38,978 nt of DNA from a virus (lineage: Duplodnaviria > Heunggongvirae > Uroviricota > Caudoviricetes): the IMG/VR virus record IMGVR_UViG_2713896784_000029; one strand, given 5' to 3'. The notes under the pieces are model-generated. The model saw nothing but the letters and a program-made list of their open reading frames with translations, had not been told where the DNA came from and ran no database searches. Both the position numbers and the translations under genes were made by a program. Positions 8,861-37,097 of the stretch are shown here, in pieces; the first letter of the stretch is position 1; every line of letters starts with the position of its first letter.

Positions 8861-9148
8861 ATGGAAAAAGAAATCAAATTTGCGCCTAAAGATATCGACG
8901 AAGAACTGGCTAAAATCGGCATGCTTGAGCGTATGCGGGACATTATCGAATATGCGATAAAAGAAAATCTTGCAGCCAGAGAAGCCCTTTTGATAATGGA
9001 GCGGGAGATTAACCTGATTAAGGATGCTGTATCTCTGGATAATAAAATAGCCCGCGAGGAATACGTTCGCCGCAGGCTCGGTGTTGATGGTTCAGCAATT
9101 CTTACATCTGAACATTATGCAAAAATCTTTAATCTTTTTTCGCGGTAA
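8861..9148 (+). CDS. hypothetical protein (AT-rich)
   Basis: ATG 8861 (MEKEIKFAPKD); helical, charged; 3' end overlaps a convergent minus-strand ORF by 20 bp. Confidence 0.45.
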   Translation: MEKEIKFAPKDIDEELAKIGMLERMRDIIEYAIKENLAAREALLIMEREINLIKDAVSLDNKIAREEYVRRRLGVDGSAILTSEHYAKIFNLFSR

Positions 9149-9368
9149 TGCCCATGCAGGCTCGGATATTGTCGAAATGCCAGTTTGTATTAATATATGA
9201 GCCATCCTGGTGTCCCTCTGCGCTTTGGGGTGCGGCACTTTTTTGAGCAATATTGATAATATGTGTTGCCTCCTCACGGGAAATAACCCCCTTATCGAAC
9301 AGGGTTACCATAAGATTTCCAGCCATTGTGAATGCGGCAACATCAAGGGCATTTTTTATATCTGACAT
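9129..9368 (-). CDS. hypothetical protein on opposite strand (AT-rich)
   Basis: 79-aa minus-strand ORF with RBS AAAAGGAAAAATCT-ATG; only convincing antisense-oriented gene in the early operon; AT-rich relative to flanks. Confidence 0.45.
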   Translation of the reverse strand: MSDIKNALDVAAFTMAGNLMVTLFDKGVISREEATHIINIAQKSAAPQSAEGHQDGSYINTNWHFDNIRACMGITAKKD

Positions 9369-9438: not shown

Positions 9439-9951
9439 ATGAATCGCGCTTCCCTGATTACCTTAATACATGTCGCAAAACGCGATCTACAGCTTGACCG
9501 GGAGACCTATATATCCGCGCTGCTGGCAGCCACCGGCAAAACCAGCTGCCGGGATATGTCACCGGATGAGTTATCCCGCGTGCTGGATGTTTTCAAAAAA
9601 CGCGGTTTTAAAGTGCGCCAGAAGCCGGTTAACCGGGCCTTAAAACCGGGTACGGTGACCGCCAAAATTCGTGCCATCTGGAAGGTAATGCACCGGCAGG
9701 GCTTTATCTCTGATGGTGCGGAAACCGCCCTTAACCGCTGGGTGAAATCGCAGACGGCCGCGCAGAACGGCGGCGAAGGTGTGGCAAACTGGCAGTGGCT
9801 GGAGCAACACCCCGCCCTGGCCTCAGATGTGCTGGAGCGTCTCAAGCGATGGCACCGCCGCAAAATGCTGGCCGCGATGGGAATGCCCGAACGCACGCTG
9901 ATGGGGTATGACGCCGTTTGCAGGCAGTATGAAAAATCACTTCCCCGTTAA
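9439..9951 (+). CDS. gemA: GemA-like regulatory protein (Mu gp16 family)
   Basis: 170 aa; N-terminus LITLIHVAKRDLQLDRETYISAL fits the GemA/gp16 family pattern; position before Mor/C; GGAG RBS. Confidence 0.7.
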   Translation: MNRASLITLIHVAKRDLQLDRETYISALLAATGKTSCRDMSPDELSRVLDVFKKRGFKVRQKPVNRALKPGTVTAKIRAIWKVMHRQGFISDGAETALNRWVKSQTAAQNGGEGVANWQWLEQHPALASDVLERLKRWHRRKMLAAMGMPERTLMGYDAVCRQYEKSLPR

Positions 9952-9955
9952 CCCC

Positions 9956-9989
9956 AAATCCCGCCACAACGCGGGATTTTTATTTTAAA
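9956..9989 (+). terminator. intrinsic terminator after gemA
   Basis: 9-bp stem AAATCCCGC / GCGGGATTT with 6-nt loop, followed by TTATTTTAAA. Confidence 0.6.
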
Positions 9990-10020
9990 CTTACCGGGAA
10001 CGCGAGAACCGGAGGCTGAT

Positions 10021-10446
10021 ATGACAGAAACTCAGATGAGCATGTTTGGTGGTGACAGTGAGCAACTGCACGCCCTTATCGACCGCCTTGATGACATCCC
10101 TGATGATGTTCTCAAAAAGAACTGGCCGCGGACCCTGTCTGAACTGGTTGAAGTCACCGGCGCAGAACTTCAGCGTCAGGGGATTGAGCCGGTACTGGCC
10201 GGTAAACTGGCACGCAAGGTGGCTGCGGCTCAGGCAGCCTATATGGGCGGACGGGGTTATTACCTGCCGGTCGGGGAATCTCTCTTTGCCGAGCTGCGAA
10301 ACAATGAGATATTTTCGCGCTGGGACCGGGGCGAGAAAATTGAATCCCTTCGCCGCCATTACCGGATGTCAGAAACCCAGATTTATACCGTCATACGTGA
10401 ACAGCGCCGTCTGCATCTGGCAAGAACGCAACCGCCACTTTTCTGA
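10021..10446 (+). CDS. Mor/C-family transcription activator
   Basis: 141 aa; C-terminal HTH region (SETQIYTVIREQRRLHL) and overall layout like Mu Mor/C; sits between gemA and lysis genes; RBS GGAGG. Confidence 0.7.
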   Translation: MTETQMSMFGGDSEQLHALIDRLDDIPDDVLKKNWPRTLSELVEVTGAELQRQGIEPVLAGKLARKVAAAQAAYMGGRGYYLPVGESLFAELRNNEIFSRWDRGEKIESLRRHYRMSETQIYTVIREQRRLHLARTQPPLF

Positions 10447-10517
10447 TATTCCGCAAAGCCTGCCGCCTTTCCTTCACCGTTACGCTGACTCAGAGAACAT
10501 CATGAGACAGCGTAACA

Positions 10518-11018
10518 ATGCCAAAACTCCCCGCACCACTGCGTAAAAAGCTGATTGCCCTTGTTCTGGCCGGTGCCGGGACGTTCACGATTGCCACGCA
10601 TTACACCGGTTACTGGGAAGGGAAAGAAAACTCCACGTATATCGATCCCACCGGTACACCCACCATCTGTTACGGCCATACCGGCCCGGATGTGAAACCG
10701 GGTATGACCCTGACGGATGAAGAATGTCTGAAACTGCTGGAAAAGGACATGAAATGGGCCTTTGCGGCCATTGATCGGCGTGTTCAGGTGCCGCTTACCC
10801 GTGGTCAGACGGTGGCGCTGGCTTCGTGGATCTTCTGGGCCGGTGAAACGAACTTTCGCAACTCCACGCTTCTGCGCCTGATCAATGCCGGACAGATGCC
10901 CGCGTCCTGTAAGCAGTATATCCGCTGGATTTATTCAAAGGGGGTGAAACTTCCCGGCCTTGAGGCCCGCCGTTCGGCGGATGAATGGTTATGTCGCTAC
11001 GACTTGCCGAAAGTCTGA
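10518..11018 (+). CDS. SAR endolysin (T4-lysozyme-like, glycoside hydrolase family 24)
   Basis: N-terminal hydrophobic signal-anchor KKLIALVLAGAGTFTIATHY followed by E-x8-D-x5-T catalytic signature (WEGKENSTYIDPTGTPT). Confidence 0.85.
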   Translation: MPKLPAPLRKKLIALVLAGAGTFTIATHYTGYWEGKENSTYIDPTGTPTICYGHTGPDVKPGMTLTDEECLKLLEKDMKWAFAAIDRRVQVPLTRGQTVALASWIFWAGETNFRNSTLLRLINAGQMPASCKQYIRWIYSKGVKLPGLEARRSADEWLCRYDLPKV

Positions 11019-11091
11019 ACCGCTTCTGGCGACCGCTCATGATAGCGCTGCTGTGTGCGGTACTGCTGTTACGGGGTGTCCTGTGGCTGCG

Positions 11092-11481
11092 GTGAATAAC
11101 GCCTTACCGGCCCTGATTGCCGGGGCGTGCATGGCGGCGCTGGGGACTATCGCTGTACTGGTTGCCGCGATATGGGGAATGCACCAGAAGACGCAGCGCC
11201 TTGAAGACAATAATCAGGTGCTTGTGCGTGAGCGGGATGAGGTGCGTCAGGTGCTGGCAAATCAGCAGCACACCCTGCAACTCATTTCACAAATCAGTGA
11301 GGCGGCCACGAATGAAAAACAACAGAACATTCAGCACAGCGAGGAGCAGCAGAGCGTTGTCCGCCGGTCGCTGGCAGCAGTGCCTGCGGCCTCTGCCCCT
11401 GTTCCTGATGATGTGGCTGATCGGGTGCGCCGGGCCGTCTGTGAAATACGTGCCTGTGAAGCCGGTGCCGATCCCCGCTGA
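11092..11481 (+). CDS. i-spanin (Rz-like); start uncertain
   Basis: N-terminal TM helix LPALIAGACMAALGTIAVLVAAIW then coiled-coil; directly after endolysin. Start could be GTG 11092 or ATG 11131; ORF-track start 10960 lies inside lys. Confidence 0.5.
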   Translation: MNNALPALIAGACMAALGTIAVLVAAIWGMHQKTQRLEDNNQVLVRERDEVRQVLANQQHTLQLISQISEAATNEKQQNIQHSEEQQSVVRRSLAAVPAASAPVPDDVADRVRRAVCEIRACEAGADPR

Positions 11482-11683
11482 ATGGCTGGCTGACTGCCTG
11501 GTCCCTCCTGCGCCGGAGCCGTTCACGTTTGGGGCATCGGTCACTTACAACCTGCAACTGCTGGCGGTGATCAAGAACTGCAACGTGGACAAGGCCAGTA
11601 TTCGTCGTCTGGAGGCGCGGCGACAACATGAATTTACTGATATGGCCGGAACGCCTGCTGTTCCGGCAGGAAAGACGAAGTAA
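11312..11683 (+). CDS. o-spanin (Rz1-like lipoprotein), overlapped with i-spanin
   Basis: Alternative frame starting inside the i-spanin gene and extending past it; signal peptide with lipobox LIGC; Pro-rich mature part. Confidence 0.55.
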   Translation: MKNNRTFSTARSSRALSAGRWQQCLRPLPLFLMMWLIGCAGPSVKYVPVKPVPIPAEWLADCLVPPAPEPFTFGASVTYNLQLLAVIKNCNVDKASIRRLEARRQHEFTDMAGTPAVPAGKTK

Positions 11684-11693
11684 GGAAAAAGGT

Positions 11694-11921
11694 ATGGATG
11701 ATTCAGATCGTGCTCAGGCTGTGATGGAGCGGGGATCAGAACGCGCCCTTTGTAACCGGCTGACACGTAAGCGCCGGGCAATGGATGCTCCGGGCAGACG
11801 TGTCTGCGCGGACTGTGGCGGAGAGATCCCCGCCGCACGTCTTGTTGCTGTGCCGGATGCCATCCGTTGTGTGAACTGCCAGAACATCATGGAGGCCCGT
11901 CATGTGGGTCAGCATCGTTAA
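11694..11921 (+). CDS. TraR/DksA-family C4 zinc-finger protein
   Basis: CADCGGEIPAARLVAVPDAIRCVNCQ four-Cys motif; ATG 11694 after AAGGAAAAAGG RBS. Confidence 0.6.
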   Translation: MDDSDRAQAVMERGSERALCNRLTRKRRAMDAPGRRVCADCGGEIPAARLVAVPDAIRCVNCQNIMEARHVGQHR

Positions 11922-12210
11922 AGATTATGTTGTGCCGATCCTTTCGGCGACGGCAACCGCTGGCGGGATATTCATGGCGCTGATGCGCAAAACGTTTGTC
12001 CCCCGCGAGGCCTTTGAAAAACTCTCCGACCGCGTTGAGAAGGTGGAAACCCGCCTGTCGTCACTGCCGACAGAAGCCGAGGTCAACCGTCTGAATGTGG
12101 AAATCGTGACCCTGCGGGGTGAACTGAAAACCACGAACGCCACGCTCCGCTCTGTCTCCTATCAGAACGAACTGCTGCTGGAGCAGGCTGTAAGGAAAAA
12201 AACGCAATGA
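11902..12210 (+). CDS. membrane protein with N-terminal TM helix and coiled-coil (possible releasin/holin-like)
   Basis: Single N-terminal TM (VVPILSATATAGGIFMALM), GGAGG RBS, located in lysis neighbourhood. Confidence 0.45.
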   Translation: MWVSIVKDYVVPILSATATAGGIFMALMRKTFVPREAFEKLSDRVEKVETRLSSLPTEAEVNRLNVEIVTLRGELKTTNATLRSVSYQNELLLEQAVRKKTQ

Positions 12211-34447: not shown

Positions 34448-36487
34448 ATGACGTCCAAATGGGTTCAACTATCATCAATGCCCGGAAACTTTACTGTTAA
34501 AGTTTCCGGTGGTACAGCGGCATTTCTTGAGGCTCCCTTTCCTCCGGCCGAAACAAAAGGAGGAATGACATTTGCTGACTGTCTCATCAGTTTTAATACA
34601 CGGGATTGCCTGTGGGTAAGGCCAGTATCCGGTGATCCGAGTGTGGAAATTACCGGAGCGGGTATTGGTGCGGTCATTCCGTTAAGTGCTGATGTTGCCG
34701 GTACTGCTGAACCGTCAGACTGGGATAATGCTGAAACACATACCCGTCCGTCAGGAAATGAAACTGCTTCCAGCTCCCCTTCCTGGTATTACGTGGTGGT
34801 TCTTGCTGGTCAGTCAAACGGTATGGCTTACGGTGAAGGTCTGCCACTGCCGGAGACATATGACCGCCCCGAACCGCGTATTATGCAGTTAGCCCGTCGC
34901 AGTACAGTCACGCCGGGAGGTAAAGCCTGTCAGTATAACGACATCATTCTGGCCGACCACTGTCTGCATGATGTGCAGGATATGAGTGGAAAAAATCACC
35001 CGAAAGCGGATGTGGCTAAAGGGCAATATGGCACCGTGGGTCAGGGGCTTCACATTGCCAAAAAACTGCTGCCGTTTATTCCGGCAGATGCGGGGATTCT
35101 GCTGGTTCCCTGCTGCCGTGGTGGTTCTGCATTCACGGCGGGTGCTGACGGCACGTACAGTGACAGCACGGGTGCTTCAGAGGACTCAGCCCGCTGGGGT
35201 GTGGATAAGCCGCTGTATAAGGACTTAATCAGCCGGACAAAAGCGGCACTGGCGAAGAACCCGAAAAACCGCCTGCTTGCTGTGGTGTGGATGCAGGGCG
35301 AGTTTGATATTGATGCGAAGCCGACGGAGCATTCCGCGCTGTTTCTGGCGATGGTGGAAAAATTCCGCGCAGACCTGGCTGAACAGGCGGAACAGTGTAC
35401 CGGTGGCAGTGCTGCTGGCGTTCCGTGGATTTGTGGCGATACCACGTATTTCTGGAAACAGAAAAATGAACCGGCATACCAGGCAATCTATGGCGGCTAC
35501 AAAAACAAAACAGATAAAAACATTCATTTCGTTCCATTAATGACAGATGAAAATGACGCGAATGTACCCACCAACAATCCGGCAGAAGACCCGGATATTG
35601 AATCCATTGGTTATTACGGCTCAACGTGGCGTAACAGTGCCGCCACCTGGACATCTGCGGACCGGGCCAGCCATTTCAGTTCATGGGCACGTCGTGGGAT
35701 TATTTCCGACCGTCTGGCCACGGCAGTTCTGACTCATGCGGGGCGAACCACAGTAAAAGCCGATGTTCCATCTTCTGAAACTGAAGCACCAGTGCCGTCA
35801 CCTTCAGAAACTGAAGCAGTAACCACAACACTGCTGTCTTATCGTGTCAGTGAGTCAGAAGGAAATCTGAAAGCCCAGGGCTGGGAGCCGGCTGGCGGTA
35901 AAGCTGAAATTATCAGTGATGCAGGAGGCACAGGTGGTAAGGCAATGAAACTGACCAAGGAAACAGGTAAATCATCCTGGTATCTGGATCATGATGCCGG
36001 TACTGGTGCTGAACTGCTGAAAAATGGTGGTTTAATCAGTTGTCGTTTTAAAGTACCTGGCGACCTGGTGGCAAACCAGTATGTCATGGGGCTTTACTGG
36101 CCGGTTTCCTCTCTGCCGCAGGGTGTCACCCTGACAGGGGATGCAGGGAATAATCTGCTGGCATCGTTCTACATCCAGACAGACGCAAAAGACCTGAATG
36201 TGATGTACCACAATGCAAAAGTGGCAACAAATAACCAGAAACTGGGAACCTTTGGTGCATTTGATAATGAATGGCATACGCTGGCCTTCCGTTTTGCAGG
36301 AAATAACAGCCTTCAGGTTATTCCGGTTATTGATGGTCAGGATGGTGCCGCGTTTACCCTGACGCAGTCACCAGTAGGAACTTTCCCGGTGGACAAACTC
36401 CGCGTAACGGATATCACAAAAAATGCAACTTACCCGGTGCTGATTGACAGCATTGTGGTGGAAGTGAAAAAAGCGGTAACAGAATAA
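34448..36487 (+). CDS. cargo SASA/SGNH-type carbohydrate O-acetylesterase (prophage NanS-p-like) with C-terminal beta-rich domain
   Basis: 679 aa; VVVLAGQSNGMAYGEG (Ser motif) and VVWMQGEFD (WxQGE.D) match the sialate O-acetylesterase family signature; SETEA-SETEA linker then ~230-aa beta-rich domain; located between gin and com where Mu has no gene. Confidence 0.6.
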   Translation: MTSKWVQLSSMPGNFTVKVSGGTAAFLEAPFPPAETKGGMTFADCLISFNTRDCLWVRPVSGDPSVEITGAGIGAVIPLSADVAGTAEPSDWDNAETHTRPSGNETASSSPSWYYVVVLAGQSNGMAYGEGLPLPETYDRPEPRIMQLARRSTVTPGGKACQYNDIILADHCLHDVQDMSGKNHPKADVAKGQYGTVGQGLHIAKKLLPFIPADAGILLVPCCRGGSAFTAGADGTYSDSTGASEDSARWGVDKPLYKDLISRTKAALAKNPKNRLLAVVWMQGEFDIDAKPTEHSALFLAMVEKFRADLAEQAEQCTGGSAAGVPWICGDTTYFWKQKNEPAYQAIYGGYKNKTDKNIHFVPLMTDENDANVPTNNPAEDPDIESIGYYGSTWRNSAATWTSADRASHFSSWARRGIISDRLATAVLTHAGRTTVKADVPSSETEAPVPSPSETEAVTTTLLSYRVSESEGNLKAQGWEPAGGKAEIISDAGGTGGKAMKLTKETGKSSWYLDHDAGTGAELLKNGGLISCRFKVPGDLVANQYVMGLYWPVSSLPQGVTLTGDAGNNLLASFYIQTDAKDLNVMYHNAKVATNNQKLGTFGAFDNEWHTLAFRFAGNNSLQVIPVIDGQDGAAFTLTQSPVGTFPVDKLRVTDITKNATYPVLIDSIVVEVKKAVTE

Positions 36488-36493
36488 AAAAAT

Positions 36494-36520
36494 CCCGCCG
36501 GTCATGATATGGCTGGCGGG
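36494..36520. terminator. hairpin after esterase gene
   Basis: CCCGCC...GGCGGG stem with A-run upstream (T-run on the minus strand), 7 bp after the esterase stop. Confidence 0.35.
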
Positions 36521-36633
36521 AGCTACCTAACCCATAAAGGAAAATAAAAATACTCCCGAAGGAGTGGTTATCAGTCGCTTCGATGTTTTTACCCGATAAC
36601 GAATTATGTAGTCAATATCAAAGGTAAGGTTAT

Positions 36634-36816
36634 ATGACATTCGTTCATACAATGCTGCTTTATTTCTGCGCTGTGGTCAGTGCGTTATATCTGGTGAGCG
36701 GTGGTTATAAGGTCATCAGAAATTATATTCGCCGTAAAATTGATGATGCGGCAGCTGAAAAACTCAGTAAAACAGCACAGGCACCGTCATCCCCAAACGA
36801 CCCGACCCCGCTCTGA
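36634..36816 (+). CDS. small membrane protein (single N-terminal TM)
   Basis: 60 aa; TM LLYFCAVVSALYLVSGGY followed by charged tail; AAGGT RBS. Confidence 0.35.
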   Translation: MTFVHTMLLYFCAVVSALYLVSGGYKVIRNYIRRKIDDAAAEKLSKTAQAPSSPNDPTPL

Positions 36817-36851
36817 TAACGGGGCAATATACCTGCAAAAGGAGAATATTC

Positions 36852-37097
36852 ATGCCAGAGATTAAAGGCACGGTTACTGAAGAGCTTGTCAAACAGGCAC
36901 TTTATTCTGAAGAAGTGAACCGCGTGCTGAAGGCGCAGGTTCGCAAGGATTTTGAGGCACAAATCGACGCATATGTTGATGAAGTGCTGGCCCGAATGGT
37001 TGGCCGTTCTCCGGCTGAAAACAGCACGGAAAATGATCCTCAACCCGTAGAGCAACCAGAGCCGGTTCAGCCCGGAACTGACGGTACTATGATGTAA
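36852..37097 (+). CDS. small acidic hypothetical protein
   Basis: 81 aa with strong RBS AAAAGGAGAA; followed by a terminator hairpin. Confidence 0.4.
   Translation: MPEIKGTVTEELVKQALYSEEVNRVLKAQVRKDFEAQIDAYVDEVLARMVGRSPAENSTENDPQPVEQPEPVQPGTDGTMM

Follow-up and report, generated by a model that had tools for sequence, protein, structure and literature searches.

Holin-independent lysis in Mu and its proposed counterpart in a Mu-like prophage

The lysis mechanism of phage Mu was established experimentally by Chamblee et al. 2022 (PMC9239132). In Mu, the endolysin gp22 carries a signal-anchor-release (SAR) domain and depends on a releasin, gp25; this dependence stems from basic residues adjacent to one another in the cytoplasmic tail of the endolysin. 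The releasin is a membrane-tethered cytoplasmic protein; it is not a holin or pinholin, and its expression was non-lethal after DNP. The same study described an RR or RK junction motif following the transmembrane domain (TMD) of releasins and considered that the Gly content of the gp22 SAR segment (six Gly within seven positions) may weaken spontaneous release. Proteins of the DUF2730 family are likewise encoded alongside endolysins that have no SAR domain (Chamblee et al. 2022, PMC9239132), so a DUF2730 protein alone is no proof of a releasin role.

The window analyzed here (the whole stretch of DNA, 38,978 nucleotides) is a complete Mu-like prophage, and its colinearity with Mu extends from ner through mom. 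Copies with 98-99.6% identity were found in ~230 complete E. coli genomes, mostly STEC/O157. The element is present in 231 of 5426 complete E. coli genomes (~4%), reaches up to 4-5 copies per genome, and is also inserted within Stx phages, which together suggest that it is active. A 1-bp length difference among the E. coli copies, initially suspected to be a spanin frameshift, was located to intergenic base 11686 and an A-run at 12196, both outside of the spanins. Scanning genome contigs with the endolysin as query returned a single Citrobacter locus.

Prophage Sp18 of E. coli O157:H7 Sakai was previously judged intact and Mu-like (Asadulghani et al. 2009, PMC2669165), and no description of its lysis genes was found in that paper. 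In the O157:H7 genomes compared with the window, all other than Sakai, cassette copies are ~99% identical.

The open reading frames (ORFs) named in a preliminary description of this region were all recovered on the plus strand with the same boundaries, and the features of the lysis region are collected in Table 1. Gene order is the same as in the Mu cassette (AF083977; PMC9239132), and in both phages these are the first late-operon genes after a Mor/C-family activator. Both cassettes encode a GH24 SAR endolysin whose SAR helix is preceded by clustered basic residues, overlapped spanins, a CxxC-x17-CxxC zinc-finger protein, and a DUF2730 type I membrane protein with an R-R/K junction, and neither has a holin. 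The cassette is also followed at its 3' side, as in Mu, by homologs of gp26, gp27, and gp28 (63%, 57%, and 73% identity, respectively), whereas the lysis proteins themselves are only 27-40% identical to those of Mu. Differences from Mu include the absence from the window of homologs of gp18 and of the membrane proteins gp19 and gp20, and the gp24-position protein, which is a recognizable TraR/DksA family member here, unlike in Mu. Additionally, a 64-nt spacer with a 36-aa TMD-encoding ORF parts the endolysin and i-spanin genes, whereas Mu gp23 overlaps gp22 directly.

Table 1. Coordinates of the lysis region features, with the matches on which each assignment is based
Coordinates	Strand	Feature	Basis
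10021..10446	+	Mor/C-family late transcription activator	Pfam Mor 3e-32; PHROG 532 "late transcriptional activator" 3e-45
10447..10517	+	Intergenic, probably with a Plys-type late promoter	Weak local alignment to Mu Plys
10518..11018	+	SAR endolysin, GH24 muramidase, 166 aa; R21/Mu-gp22 type	Pfam Phage_lysozyme PF00959 7e-37
10985..11095	+	Unannotated 36-aa ORF (MVMSLRLAESLNRFWRPLMIALLCAVLLLRGVLWLR), single TMD	Between endolysin and i-spanin
11083..11481 (alternative start ATG 11131)	+	i-spanin	PHROG 214 "Rz-like spanin" 6.8e-32; 27% identity to Mu gp23
11312..11683	+	o-spanin lipoprotein precursor, 123 aa	Pfam LysC 5e-16; PHROG 3001 8e-42; 40% identity to Mu gp23.1
11694..11921	+	TraR/DksA-type C4 zinc-finger protein, 75 aa; Mu gp24 position	Pfam zf-dskA_traR 8e-12; PHROG 54 9e-20
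11902..12210	+	DUF2730 protein, 102 aa; Mu gp25 releasin homolog	Pfam DUF2730 (PF10805) 7e-20

The Pfam and PHROG matches of the cassette proteins are strong and are not due to chance. Overall, the cassette is largely ordinary and built like that of Mu, the exception being a tiny unannotated membrane-peptide gene that is absent from Mu. Given that the components are homologous to those of Mu and in the same order, and that a holin-like gene is absent, the preliminary interpretation of a SAR endolysin with overlapped spanins and no classical holin is supported. The module is assigned to the late operon of a transposable, Mu-like prophage resembling Sp18 of E. coli O157 and most likely works as in Mu, without a holin. 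This assessment rests on homology, gene order, and sequence and structural features, with membrane tethering, releasin dependence, and spanin function carried over from Mu.

The late activator lies directly upstream of the lysis operon and is more similar to Mu C (40% identity) than to Mu Mor (27%). Mu has a second Mor/C regulator, whereas a tblastn search of the window found no Mor/C homolog besides this one. The intergenic stretch that follows was aligned locally to the annotated Mu Plys (ATTCCGCA..CCTGCCGCC..TCAGAGAA); although the match is weak, a Plys-type late promoter is probably located here.

SAR endolysin and candidate releasin

The endolysin is 39% identical to Mu gp22 and contains the catalytic triad E34-x8-D43-x5-T49, in line with the lysozyme signature named in the preliminary description. 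R21 and DLP12 RrrD (PDB 3HDE, 3HDF, and 4ZPU) were the best PDB matches by both sequence and structure and have the E-x8-D-x5-T triad in common with it. The alignment to R21 (3HDE, E=1e-24), a proven SAR endolysin, covers residues 5-161 and includes the SAR domain. BLAST and HMMER alignments to R21 placed E37 as the catalytic Glu, but this assignment was ruled out given that E34 never varies in the family alignment and has the spacing expected of the triad; across 46 homologs, E34/G35 are invariant or nearly so.

The SAR segment comprises residues 12-33 (10551-10616), a charge-free stretch of 22 aa that is 50% Ala/Gly/Ser/Thr, has a mean KD of 1.09, and is preceded by four basic residues (K3, R9, K10, and K11). 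Its composition resembles Mu gp22 and R21, with comparable values. The basic motif LRK[KR]L (R9-K10-K11 here) is kept in all lineages, and this type of N-terminus is retained in most homologs, down to 33% identity. In the AF2 model of the endolysin (pLDDT 93.4 overall), helices 6-17 and 22-34 are packed as part of the enzyme fold, with a pLDDT of 83-97 in the N-terminal segment. This predicted structure was compared to full-length R21 (3HDE) and RrrD (4ZPU) with a TM score of 0.84 (rmsd 2.2 A, 163 columns), versus a TM score of 0.59 for SAR-less R21 (3HDF).

These observations also bear on whether the N-terminus is instead an ordinary cleavable Sec signal peptide, with the enzyme regulated in another way and the DUF2730 protein unrelated to its release. 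The layout resembles n-, h-, and c-regions (a basic n-region, a LIALVL run, and AGA-G and TIA-T motifs), signal peptidase could cut at AGA/G (20/21) or TIA/T (26/27), and DUF2730 proteins are paired with non-SAR endolysins elsewhere (PMC9239132). However, the charge-free, Ala/Gly/Ser/Thr-rich stretch reaches the catalytic Glu and aligns with the SAR domain of R21, which is not cleaved. The predicted packing of the segment as two helices, the drop in TM score against the SAR-less structure, and the persistence of this N-terminus among distant homologs likewise point away from cleavage, making a signal peptide very unlikely. The SAR endolysin reading is retained below.

The SAR segment is not identical in character to that of Mu. 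It has three Gly in place of the six clustered in Mu gp22, abuts the catalytic Glu, unlike in Mu, and is more hydrophobic over a 19-aa span (KD 1.39 versus 1.09 for Mu). Therefore, releasin dependence could differ between the two endolysins.

The DUF2730 match spans the full length of the candidate releasin, whose residues 6-97 align with positions 3-101 of the 102-position profile, and a 91-aa alignment with Mu gp25 shows 35% identity (E=7e-17). It is predicted to have one N-terminal TMD (residues 10-28) and an acidic helical cytoplasmic domain in an N-out/C-in orientation, with M28-R29-K30 at the junction between the TMD and the cytoplasm; M28 and R29 are invariant in the family alignment. 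The gene has a strong Shine-Dalgarno (SD) sequence (GGAGG, -9.3) and is the fourth or fifth gene downstream of the endolysin, i.e., within five genes, in a Mu-colinear prophage. This single-TMD protein had been suggested to act as a releasin or a pinholin, as proposed for Mu. The releasin part of that suggestion agrees with the homology to gp25, whereas the pinholin part does not hold for gp25, which is neither a holin nor a pinholin (PMC9239132). R21 offers a further contrast, being released by pinholin S21-68 encoded immediately upstream, whereas a DUF2730 gene and no pinholin gene is found here. The zinc-finger protein encoded just before the DUF2730 gene has a CxxC-x17-CxxC spacing identical to that of Mu gp24 and is probably not a lysis protein.

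The preliminary claim that no class I or class II holin is evident was borne out. None of the cluster proteins matched a holin family in Pfam or PHROG. A hydropathy scan of all window ORFs found no small ORF in the lysis cluster that combined two or three TMDs with a charged C-terminus. The same whole-window scan found no other membrane ORFs in the late region besides those listed in Table 1, which include the 36-aa ORF. Elsewhere in the prophage, a DUF1378 membrane protein is encoded at 36634-36816; like the 36-aa ORF, it is a candidate membrane-active lysis factor.

Following the scheme established for Mu, lysis would begin when the single Mor/C-family activator switches on the late promoter upstream of 10518. 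The muramidase would be exported by Sec and remain inactive, tethered to the inner membrane through its weakly hydrophobic SAR helix, with the basic R9-K10-K11 cluster holding this helix from the cytoplasmic side. The DUF2730 releasin, a type I membrane protein whose cytoplasmic domain is acidic, would then help the SAR helix to leave the bilayer. The freed helix would refold into the enzyme body as in R21, and the active enzyme would degrade the peptidoglycan. Lastly, a complex of i-spanin and o-spanin would span the periplasm and fuse or disrupt the outer membrane.

Overlapped spanins and their start codons

An i-spanin with an N-terminal TMD had been described here, and both its PHROG family and its hydropathy profile agree (KD 2.37 for the TMD), with charged amino acids making up 28% of the periplasmic residues. 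The o-spanin gene begins within the i-spanin gene in another frame and ends 202 nt past the i-spanin stop. This overlapped architecture is of the P2 and Mu type, and the o-spanin is not embedded as in lambda. Although the o-spanin falls into Pfam LysC and the i-spanin into an Rz-like PHROG family, their sequences are only distantly related to P2 LysB/LysC and lambda Rz/Rz1.

The LIGC lipobox of the o-spanin (codons 11417-11428; PLFLMMWLIGC), also noted previously, fits a PS00013-type pattern, with the lipobox Cys at residue 39 and Ala at +2. The predicted mature protein has 85 aa and 11 Pro. In relatives the lipobox changes only to LSGC, LTGC, and LTAC, all of which are valid. A GAGG SD precedes the conserved ATG at 11312, and TTG 11357 offers an alternative start. 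Two starts annotated by PGAP, GTG 11441 and GTG 11465, were ruled out given that they lie downstream of the lipobox Cys, so the annotated LysC start loses the lipobox.

For the i-spanin, GTG 11083 is the most likely start on sequence grounds. This codon has the best SD match among the i-spanin starts (GGGG, -8.8 kcal/mol) and is aligned with the start codon, either ATG or GTG, of the Citrobacter, L078, L161, and L163 lineages. Two upstream candidates were rejected. GTG 11053, the PGAP start, has no SD, and 11019-11082 evolves as non-coding in its frame. For ATG 10981, substitutions within 11019-11082 are anti-coding in frame, and the codon is ACG in the Citrobacter group. The RefSeq starts of both spanins therefore look wrong.

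A conserved 36-aa ORF between endolysin and i-spanin

The 36-aa micro-ORF, which was missing from the preliminary description, shares 34 nt with the 3' end of the endolysin gene and 13 nt with the beginning of the i-spanin gene. It is open in 118 loci representing 29 DNA variants and is conserved at constant length in five lineages, to 55% endolysin identity; the 64-nt spacer between endolysin and i-spanin is likewise constant in length and indel-free across these lineages. The encoded TMD is short with an invariant Arg inside, and the peptide lacks a charged tail at its C-terminus. Pooled pN/pS was 0.52 in the frame of the micro-ORF versus 1.12 and 1.52 in the other two frames, and changes at codon positions 1/2/3 numbered 20/15/32 (p=0.03). 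Only in this frame did pS exceed pN in nine of ten lineage pairs, and replacements in the TMD were almost all hydrophobic-for-hydrophobic.

Database comparisons returned little beyond close relatives. No PHROG or Pfam family was matched, and no similarity to Mu gp20 was detectable. Searches of phage genomes recovered the same prophage only, and metagenome and viral scans recovered close relatives only. Using a 62-aa version from locus L075 as the protein-search query, only one gene call was found among 5.8 billion protein clusters.

It is quite possible, if short of probable, that the micro-ORF does not encode a functional protein. It would then be a remnant of the 5' end of an ancestral i-spanin gene, or else a leader that serves only to couple translation of the i-spanin to that of the endolysin. 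Much of its length is under other constraints, with the first 11 codons bound to the endolysin 3' end and the last ~10 overlapping the i-spanin SD and start. Over the 51 nt that are free of these overlaps, the bias among codon positions does not reach significance (p=0.08 to 0.27), and comparisons with lineage L078 gave pN/pS of 0.67-2.0. The Mu i-spanin starts exactly here, with a similar G-x-L-W motif at the end of its TMD. The micro-ORF also has a weak SD, and lineage L164 is without it while keeping the endolysin, spanins, and DUF2730 gene. A relic or leader is, however, harder to reconcile with the constant ORF length and indel-free spacer over five lineages, with the frame-specific excess of pS over pN, and with the conservative replacements in the TMD. 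Nor does conserved RNA structure explain the conservation, as the spacer has only a weak consensus fold (-12.7 kcal/mol) with almost no covariation.

A more doubtful reading is that the micro-ORF is a real extra component of the holin-less lysis system, placed between SAR endolysin and i-spanin. Its peptide could then tune SAR-endolysin release or spanin activity, supplying a timing control that otherwise seems to be missing from Mu-type cassettes. It might also be the functional counterpart of gp20, an unexplained 39-aa membrane protein of Mu.

The micro-ORF is relevant as well to the idea that a holin- or pinholin-like timer exists after all, in which either the 36-aa peptide or the DUF2730 protein depolarizes the membrane and frees the endolysin, as in phage 21 (S68/R21). 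By structure, the nearest matches to the endolysin are R21 and RrrD, and both of these act together with pinholins. The micro-ORF adjoins the endolysin, encodes a TMD, and shows coding-type substitutions in five lineages, and the other small Mu membrane proteins, gp19 and gp20, are missing here. Such a timer is nevertheless unlikely. Known pinholins have two TMDs, as opposed to the one short, Arg-containing TMD of the peptide, which also lacks a charged C-terminal tail, and no holin family was matched. The absence of the micro-ORF from L164, where the remaining components are kept, and the experimental finding that Mu gp25 is not holin-like (PMC9239132) argue against either protein in this role.

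Under the favored Mu-type reading, the holin-less releasin scheme reported for Mu in 2022 extends to a diverged family of Mu-like prophages, many of whose hosts are STEC. The prophage is an even more stripped-down case than Mu, given that gp19 and gp20 are missing. RefSeq spanin starts in these prophages are systematically off and yield an o-spanin without its lipobox, and the conserved micro-ORF of the cassette is invisible in protein databases. As a second endolysin/releasin pair, at 35-39% identity to that of Mu, the proteins described here provide a test of which features make a SAR endolysin releasin-dependent.

The prophage and its lysis genes

The whole 38,978-bp window corresponds to a complete Mu-like prophage: searches with all Mu proteins (tblastn) showed colinearity between ner and mom, with protein identities of 27-79%. 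It is in the same family as Sp18 of O157 Sakai, and this family is common and already sequenced. Sp18 is regarded as an intact, Mu-like prophage (PMC2669165). Of 5426 complete E. coli genomes, 231 carried chromosomal prophages with up to 99.6% identity to the window lysis region; many of these 231 are O157:H7 or another type of STEC. In two Stx-converting phage records, 'inserted Mu-like phage' segments were 98.6-98.8% identical to the same region. The prophage type was also found inside Stx1a- and Stx2c-converting prophages (LC727895, LC727881). Copy number reached 4-5 per E. coli genome, and these multiple copies, together with insertion in Stx prophages, suggest recent transposition.

In the re-annotated Mu record, the C activator is followed by the gp22 SAR (signal-anchor-release) endolysin, gp23 i-spanin, gp23.1 o-spanin, gp24, gp25 releasin, gp26, gp27, and terminase, and the window genes follow the same order. 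The two differ upstream, where a single Mor/C-family activator was found between gemA and the endolysin gene (9439-10446), and gp18, gp19, and gp20 of the Mu middle operon have no counterpart there; searches with these three Mu proteins (tblastn) returned no homolog in the window. The two-step Mor-to-C cascade of Mu appears to have collapsed to one regulator, and the same layout was found in three related loci (L161-L163). Immediately upstream of gemA, a 79-aa ORF lies on the minus strand within the otherwise plus-strand early/middle region.

Features of the lysis region and other loci in the window, with amino acid identities to Mu proteins
Feature	Coordinates	Strand	Profile match or product	Identity to Mu
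79-aa ORF	9129-9368	-	PHROG 32893, 9e-40	
Endolysin, 166 aa	10518-11018	+	GH24 phage lysozyme: Pfam 7e-37, PHROG endolysin 1e-50	gp22, 39%
Micro-ORF, 36 aa	10985-11095	+	third frame; encodes MVMSLRLAESLNRFWRPLMIALLCAVLLLRGVLWLR	
i-spanin	frame ends 11481	+	PHROG 'Rz-like spanin', 7e-32	gp23, 27%
o-spanin	frame ends 11683	+	Pfam LysC 5e-16, PHROG 3001 8e-42	gp23.1, 40%
DUF2730 protein, full-length, one N-terminal TMD	11902-12210	+	Pfam 7e-20	gp25, 35% (E=7e-17)
Counterpart of gp26				gp26, 63%
Counterpart of gp27				gp27, 57%
Counterpart of gp28				gp28, 73%
SASA-family carbohydrate acetylesterase, 679 aa, with DUF6645 domain	within 34448-37097	+		
DUF1378 membrane protein, 60 aa	36634-36816	+		
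DUF826 protein	36852-37097	+		

Among E. coli copies, a 1-bp indel was observed at 11686 in the o-spanin/TraR intergenic spacer, and an A-run length polymorphism (12190-12196) at the DUF2730/gp26 junction gave a DUF2730 C-terminus of either RKKTQ-stop or RKKHNE-stop.

Endolysin, putative releasin, and the search for a holin

A SAR endolysin with an E-x8-D-x5-T signature had been claimed in the preliminary description, and both the ORF and the triad (E34-x8-D43-x5-T49) were found, along with an N-terminus that is SAR-like by sequence and by model. E34 and G35 are invariant or nearly so among 46 aligned homologs. The N-terminus begins MPKLPAPLRKK, and the next 22 residues, LIALVLAGAGTFTIATHYTGYW, carry no charge; half of them are Ala, Gly, Ser, or Thr, a composition similar to that of the SAR domains proven in Mu gp22 and in R of phage 21. 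The adjoining basic cluster R9-K10-K11 is kept as LRK[KR]L in all lineages examined. According to the Mu authors, hydropathy-based algorithms cope badly with SAR domains (PMC9239132).

Small residues at AGA/G and TIA/T could mark a cleavable signal peptide; this reading is possible but unlikely, given the comparisons with R21. The best matches among PDB sequences were full-length R21 (3HDE) and DLP12 RrrD (4ZPU), at an E of about 1e-24 (phmmer), and the alignment begins at residue 5 and so includes the SAR segment. An AlphaFold2 model (46 homologs) had a mean pLDDT of 93.4, with 83-97 over the first 30 residues, where helices 6-17 and 22-34 are predicted to pack on the enzyme body. It fitted full-length R21 and RrrD (TM 0.84, rmsd 2.2 Å, 163 columns; Foldseek) much better than SAR-less truncated R21 (3HDF, TM 0.59). 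The alignment, model, and structural fit therefore favour a predicted SAR helix over a signal peptide.

The lysis mechanism of Mu has been worked out by experiment (Chamblee et al. 2022, PMC9239132). There, the pinholin of phage 21 can release the SAR endolysin gp22, gp23/gp23.1 serve as the spanins, and gp25 is a cytoplasmic protein tethered to the membrane and needed for gp22 release, a dependence that stems from the adjacent basic residues K6/K7 of gp22. Expression of gp25 is non-lethal after DNP, and in induced Mu lysogens DNP delays lysis rather than triggering it. DUF2730 proteins were described there as having an N-out/C-in TMD, an RR/RK junction motif, and a gene ≤5 genes from the endolysin (PMC9239132). 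The window DUF2730 protein shares all of the sequence features listed for this family, with the junction motif at M28-R29-K30 (alignment A1, of DUF2730 proteins).

The claimed absence of a classical holin was borne out, with no holin family match among lysis-cluster proteins (Pfam and PHROG profile searches) and no other late-region TMD ORF beyond a 36-aa micro-ORF. In a Kyte-Doolittle scan of all window ORFs of at least 30 aa, only the i-spanin, the DUF2730 protein, and the micro-ORF exceeded the TMD threshold in the late-operon lysis region; the SAR segment, which is weakly hydrophobic, and the signal peptide of the o-spanin score under it. Elsewhere in the window, the only plausible membrane protein is the DUF1378 protein, located near the right end in a cargo block (34448-37097, plus strand) between gin and com/mom. 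Lambdoid Stx phages have a nanS-p/DUF1378/DUF826 block upstream of their holin gene, and we take the SASA/DUF1378/DUF826 trio of the cargo block to resemble it. A SASA gene also lies close to a holin and an endolysin in locus L165.

Spanin starts and a 36-aa reading frame

The spanin gene pair is of the 'overlapped' architecture, with the o-spanin starting inside the i-spanin gene in a different frame and ending 202 nt beyond it. The claimed i-spanin and alternative-frame o-spanin lipoprotein were supported by profile matches and by the lipobox LIGC (11417-11428), which matches the classical pattern, has Ala at +2, and is replaced in diverged relatives by LSGC, LTGC, or LTAC only. The mature o-spanin is 85 aa and Pro-rich.

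For the o-spanin, ATG 11312 is conserved across all relatives (MKNN/MKSN) with a GAGG SD, and an alternative TTG at 11357 has a GAGGAG SD. The LysC starts in RefSeq copies (GTG 11441 or 11465) were rejected because they are located past the lipobox Cys. GTG 11083 has the best SD among i-spanin starts (GGGG, -8.8 kcal/mol), and its position matches an ATG or GTG i-spanin start in four other lineages. RefSeq copies begin the i-spanin, sometimes called 'endopeptidase', at ATG 11131 or at GTG 11053, a PGAP start rejected for having no SD. Since PGAP used 11053, 11441, and 11465 in the RefSeq copies L004-L009, spanin annotations in this prophage type are systematically truncated or mis-started.

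The micro-ORF was missing from the ORFs of the preliminary description. It covers the 64-nt spacer between the endolysin stop (11018) and i-spanin start (11083) and encodes a peptide with a short N-terminus, basic and amphipathic, and a single TMD reaching the C-terminus. The frame was open in 118 fetched loci (29 DNA variants) and in five lineages, namely E. coli and, by endolysin identity to the window, Citrobacter/Salmonella (82-84%), L161/L162 (70%), L163 (67%), and L078 (55%). All five share a product length of 36-37 aa, a constant spacer length, and a 13-nt overlap with the i-spanin start. The role of the micro-ORF could be translational coupling or could lie in lysis, or it could be a leftover of an ancestral i-spanin N-terminus.

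Among lineage representatives, pooled pN/pS was 0.52 in the micro-ORF frame versus 1.12 and 1.52 in the remaining frames, pS exceeded pN in 9 of 10 lineage pairs, and substitutions at codon positions 1/2/3 numbered 20/15/32 (p=0.03). Over this region the i-spanin frame has the opposite substitution pattern, and its upstream ATG is missing in the Citrobacter group. No conserved RNA fold accounting for the conservation was found. The ends of the micro-ORF are under constraint from the endolysin 3' end and from the i-spanin SD and start, and positional bias in the free 51 nt was non-significant (p=0.08-0.27). Its SD is weak, and it is absent from related lineage L164 and from Mu, where the i-spanin abuts the endolysin. 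The peptide had no Pfam or PHROG match and no similarity to Mu gp20, which is comparable in size and layout; none of three peptide variants was present in a 15-billion-protein collection (exact look-up), and searching 5.8 billion clusters by homology returned one 34-aa call only. On balance, we lean towards the micro-ORF being a real translated gene.

The endolysin gene has a single TTA Leu codon (10989-10991), which makes ATG 10991 in the micro-ORF frame; this codon is TTA in every lineage, one variant excepted. In four large late genes, 6% of the Leu codons are TTA. In one copy (L030, IMGVR_UViG_2526164665_000023), an indel in the region homologous to window 11010-11095 puts the endolysin and the micro-ORF in one continuous frame, so that the endolysin gains a TMD at its C-terminus (…DLPKSLNRFWRPLMIALLCAVLLLRGVLWLR-stop). 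Either an error in sequencing or an inactivating mutation could explain this fusion.

Proposed lysis scheme

A single Mor/C-type activator would switch on the late promoter, and Sec would export the muramidase, which would remain tethered to the membrane. The DUF2730 protein would then help pull the SAR helix out of the membrane, allowing the endolysin to refold into an active enzyme that would break down murein, and the spanins would disrupt the outer membrane. We infer every functional step by analogy with Mu and R21; the direct basis here is homology, gene order, sequence features, and predicted structure. The preliminary reading of the cassette was essentially correct, in that the finding is real and the ORFs lie where it placed them. 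The cassette is a known kind of system, already published for Mu in 2022, to which the only additions of note are the micro-ORF and the finding that spanin starts are mis-annotated.
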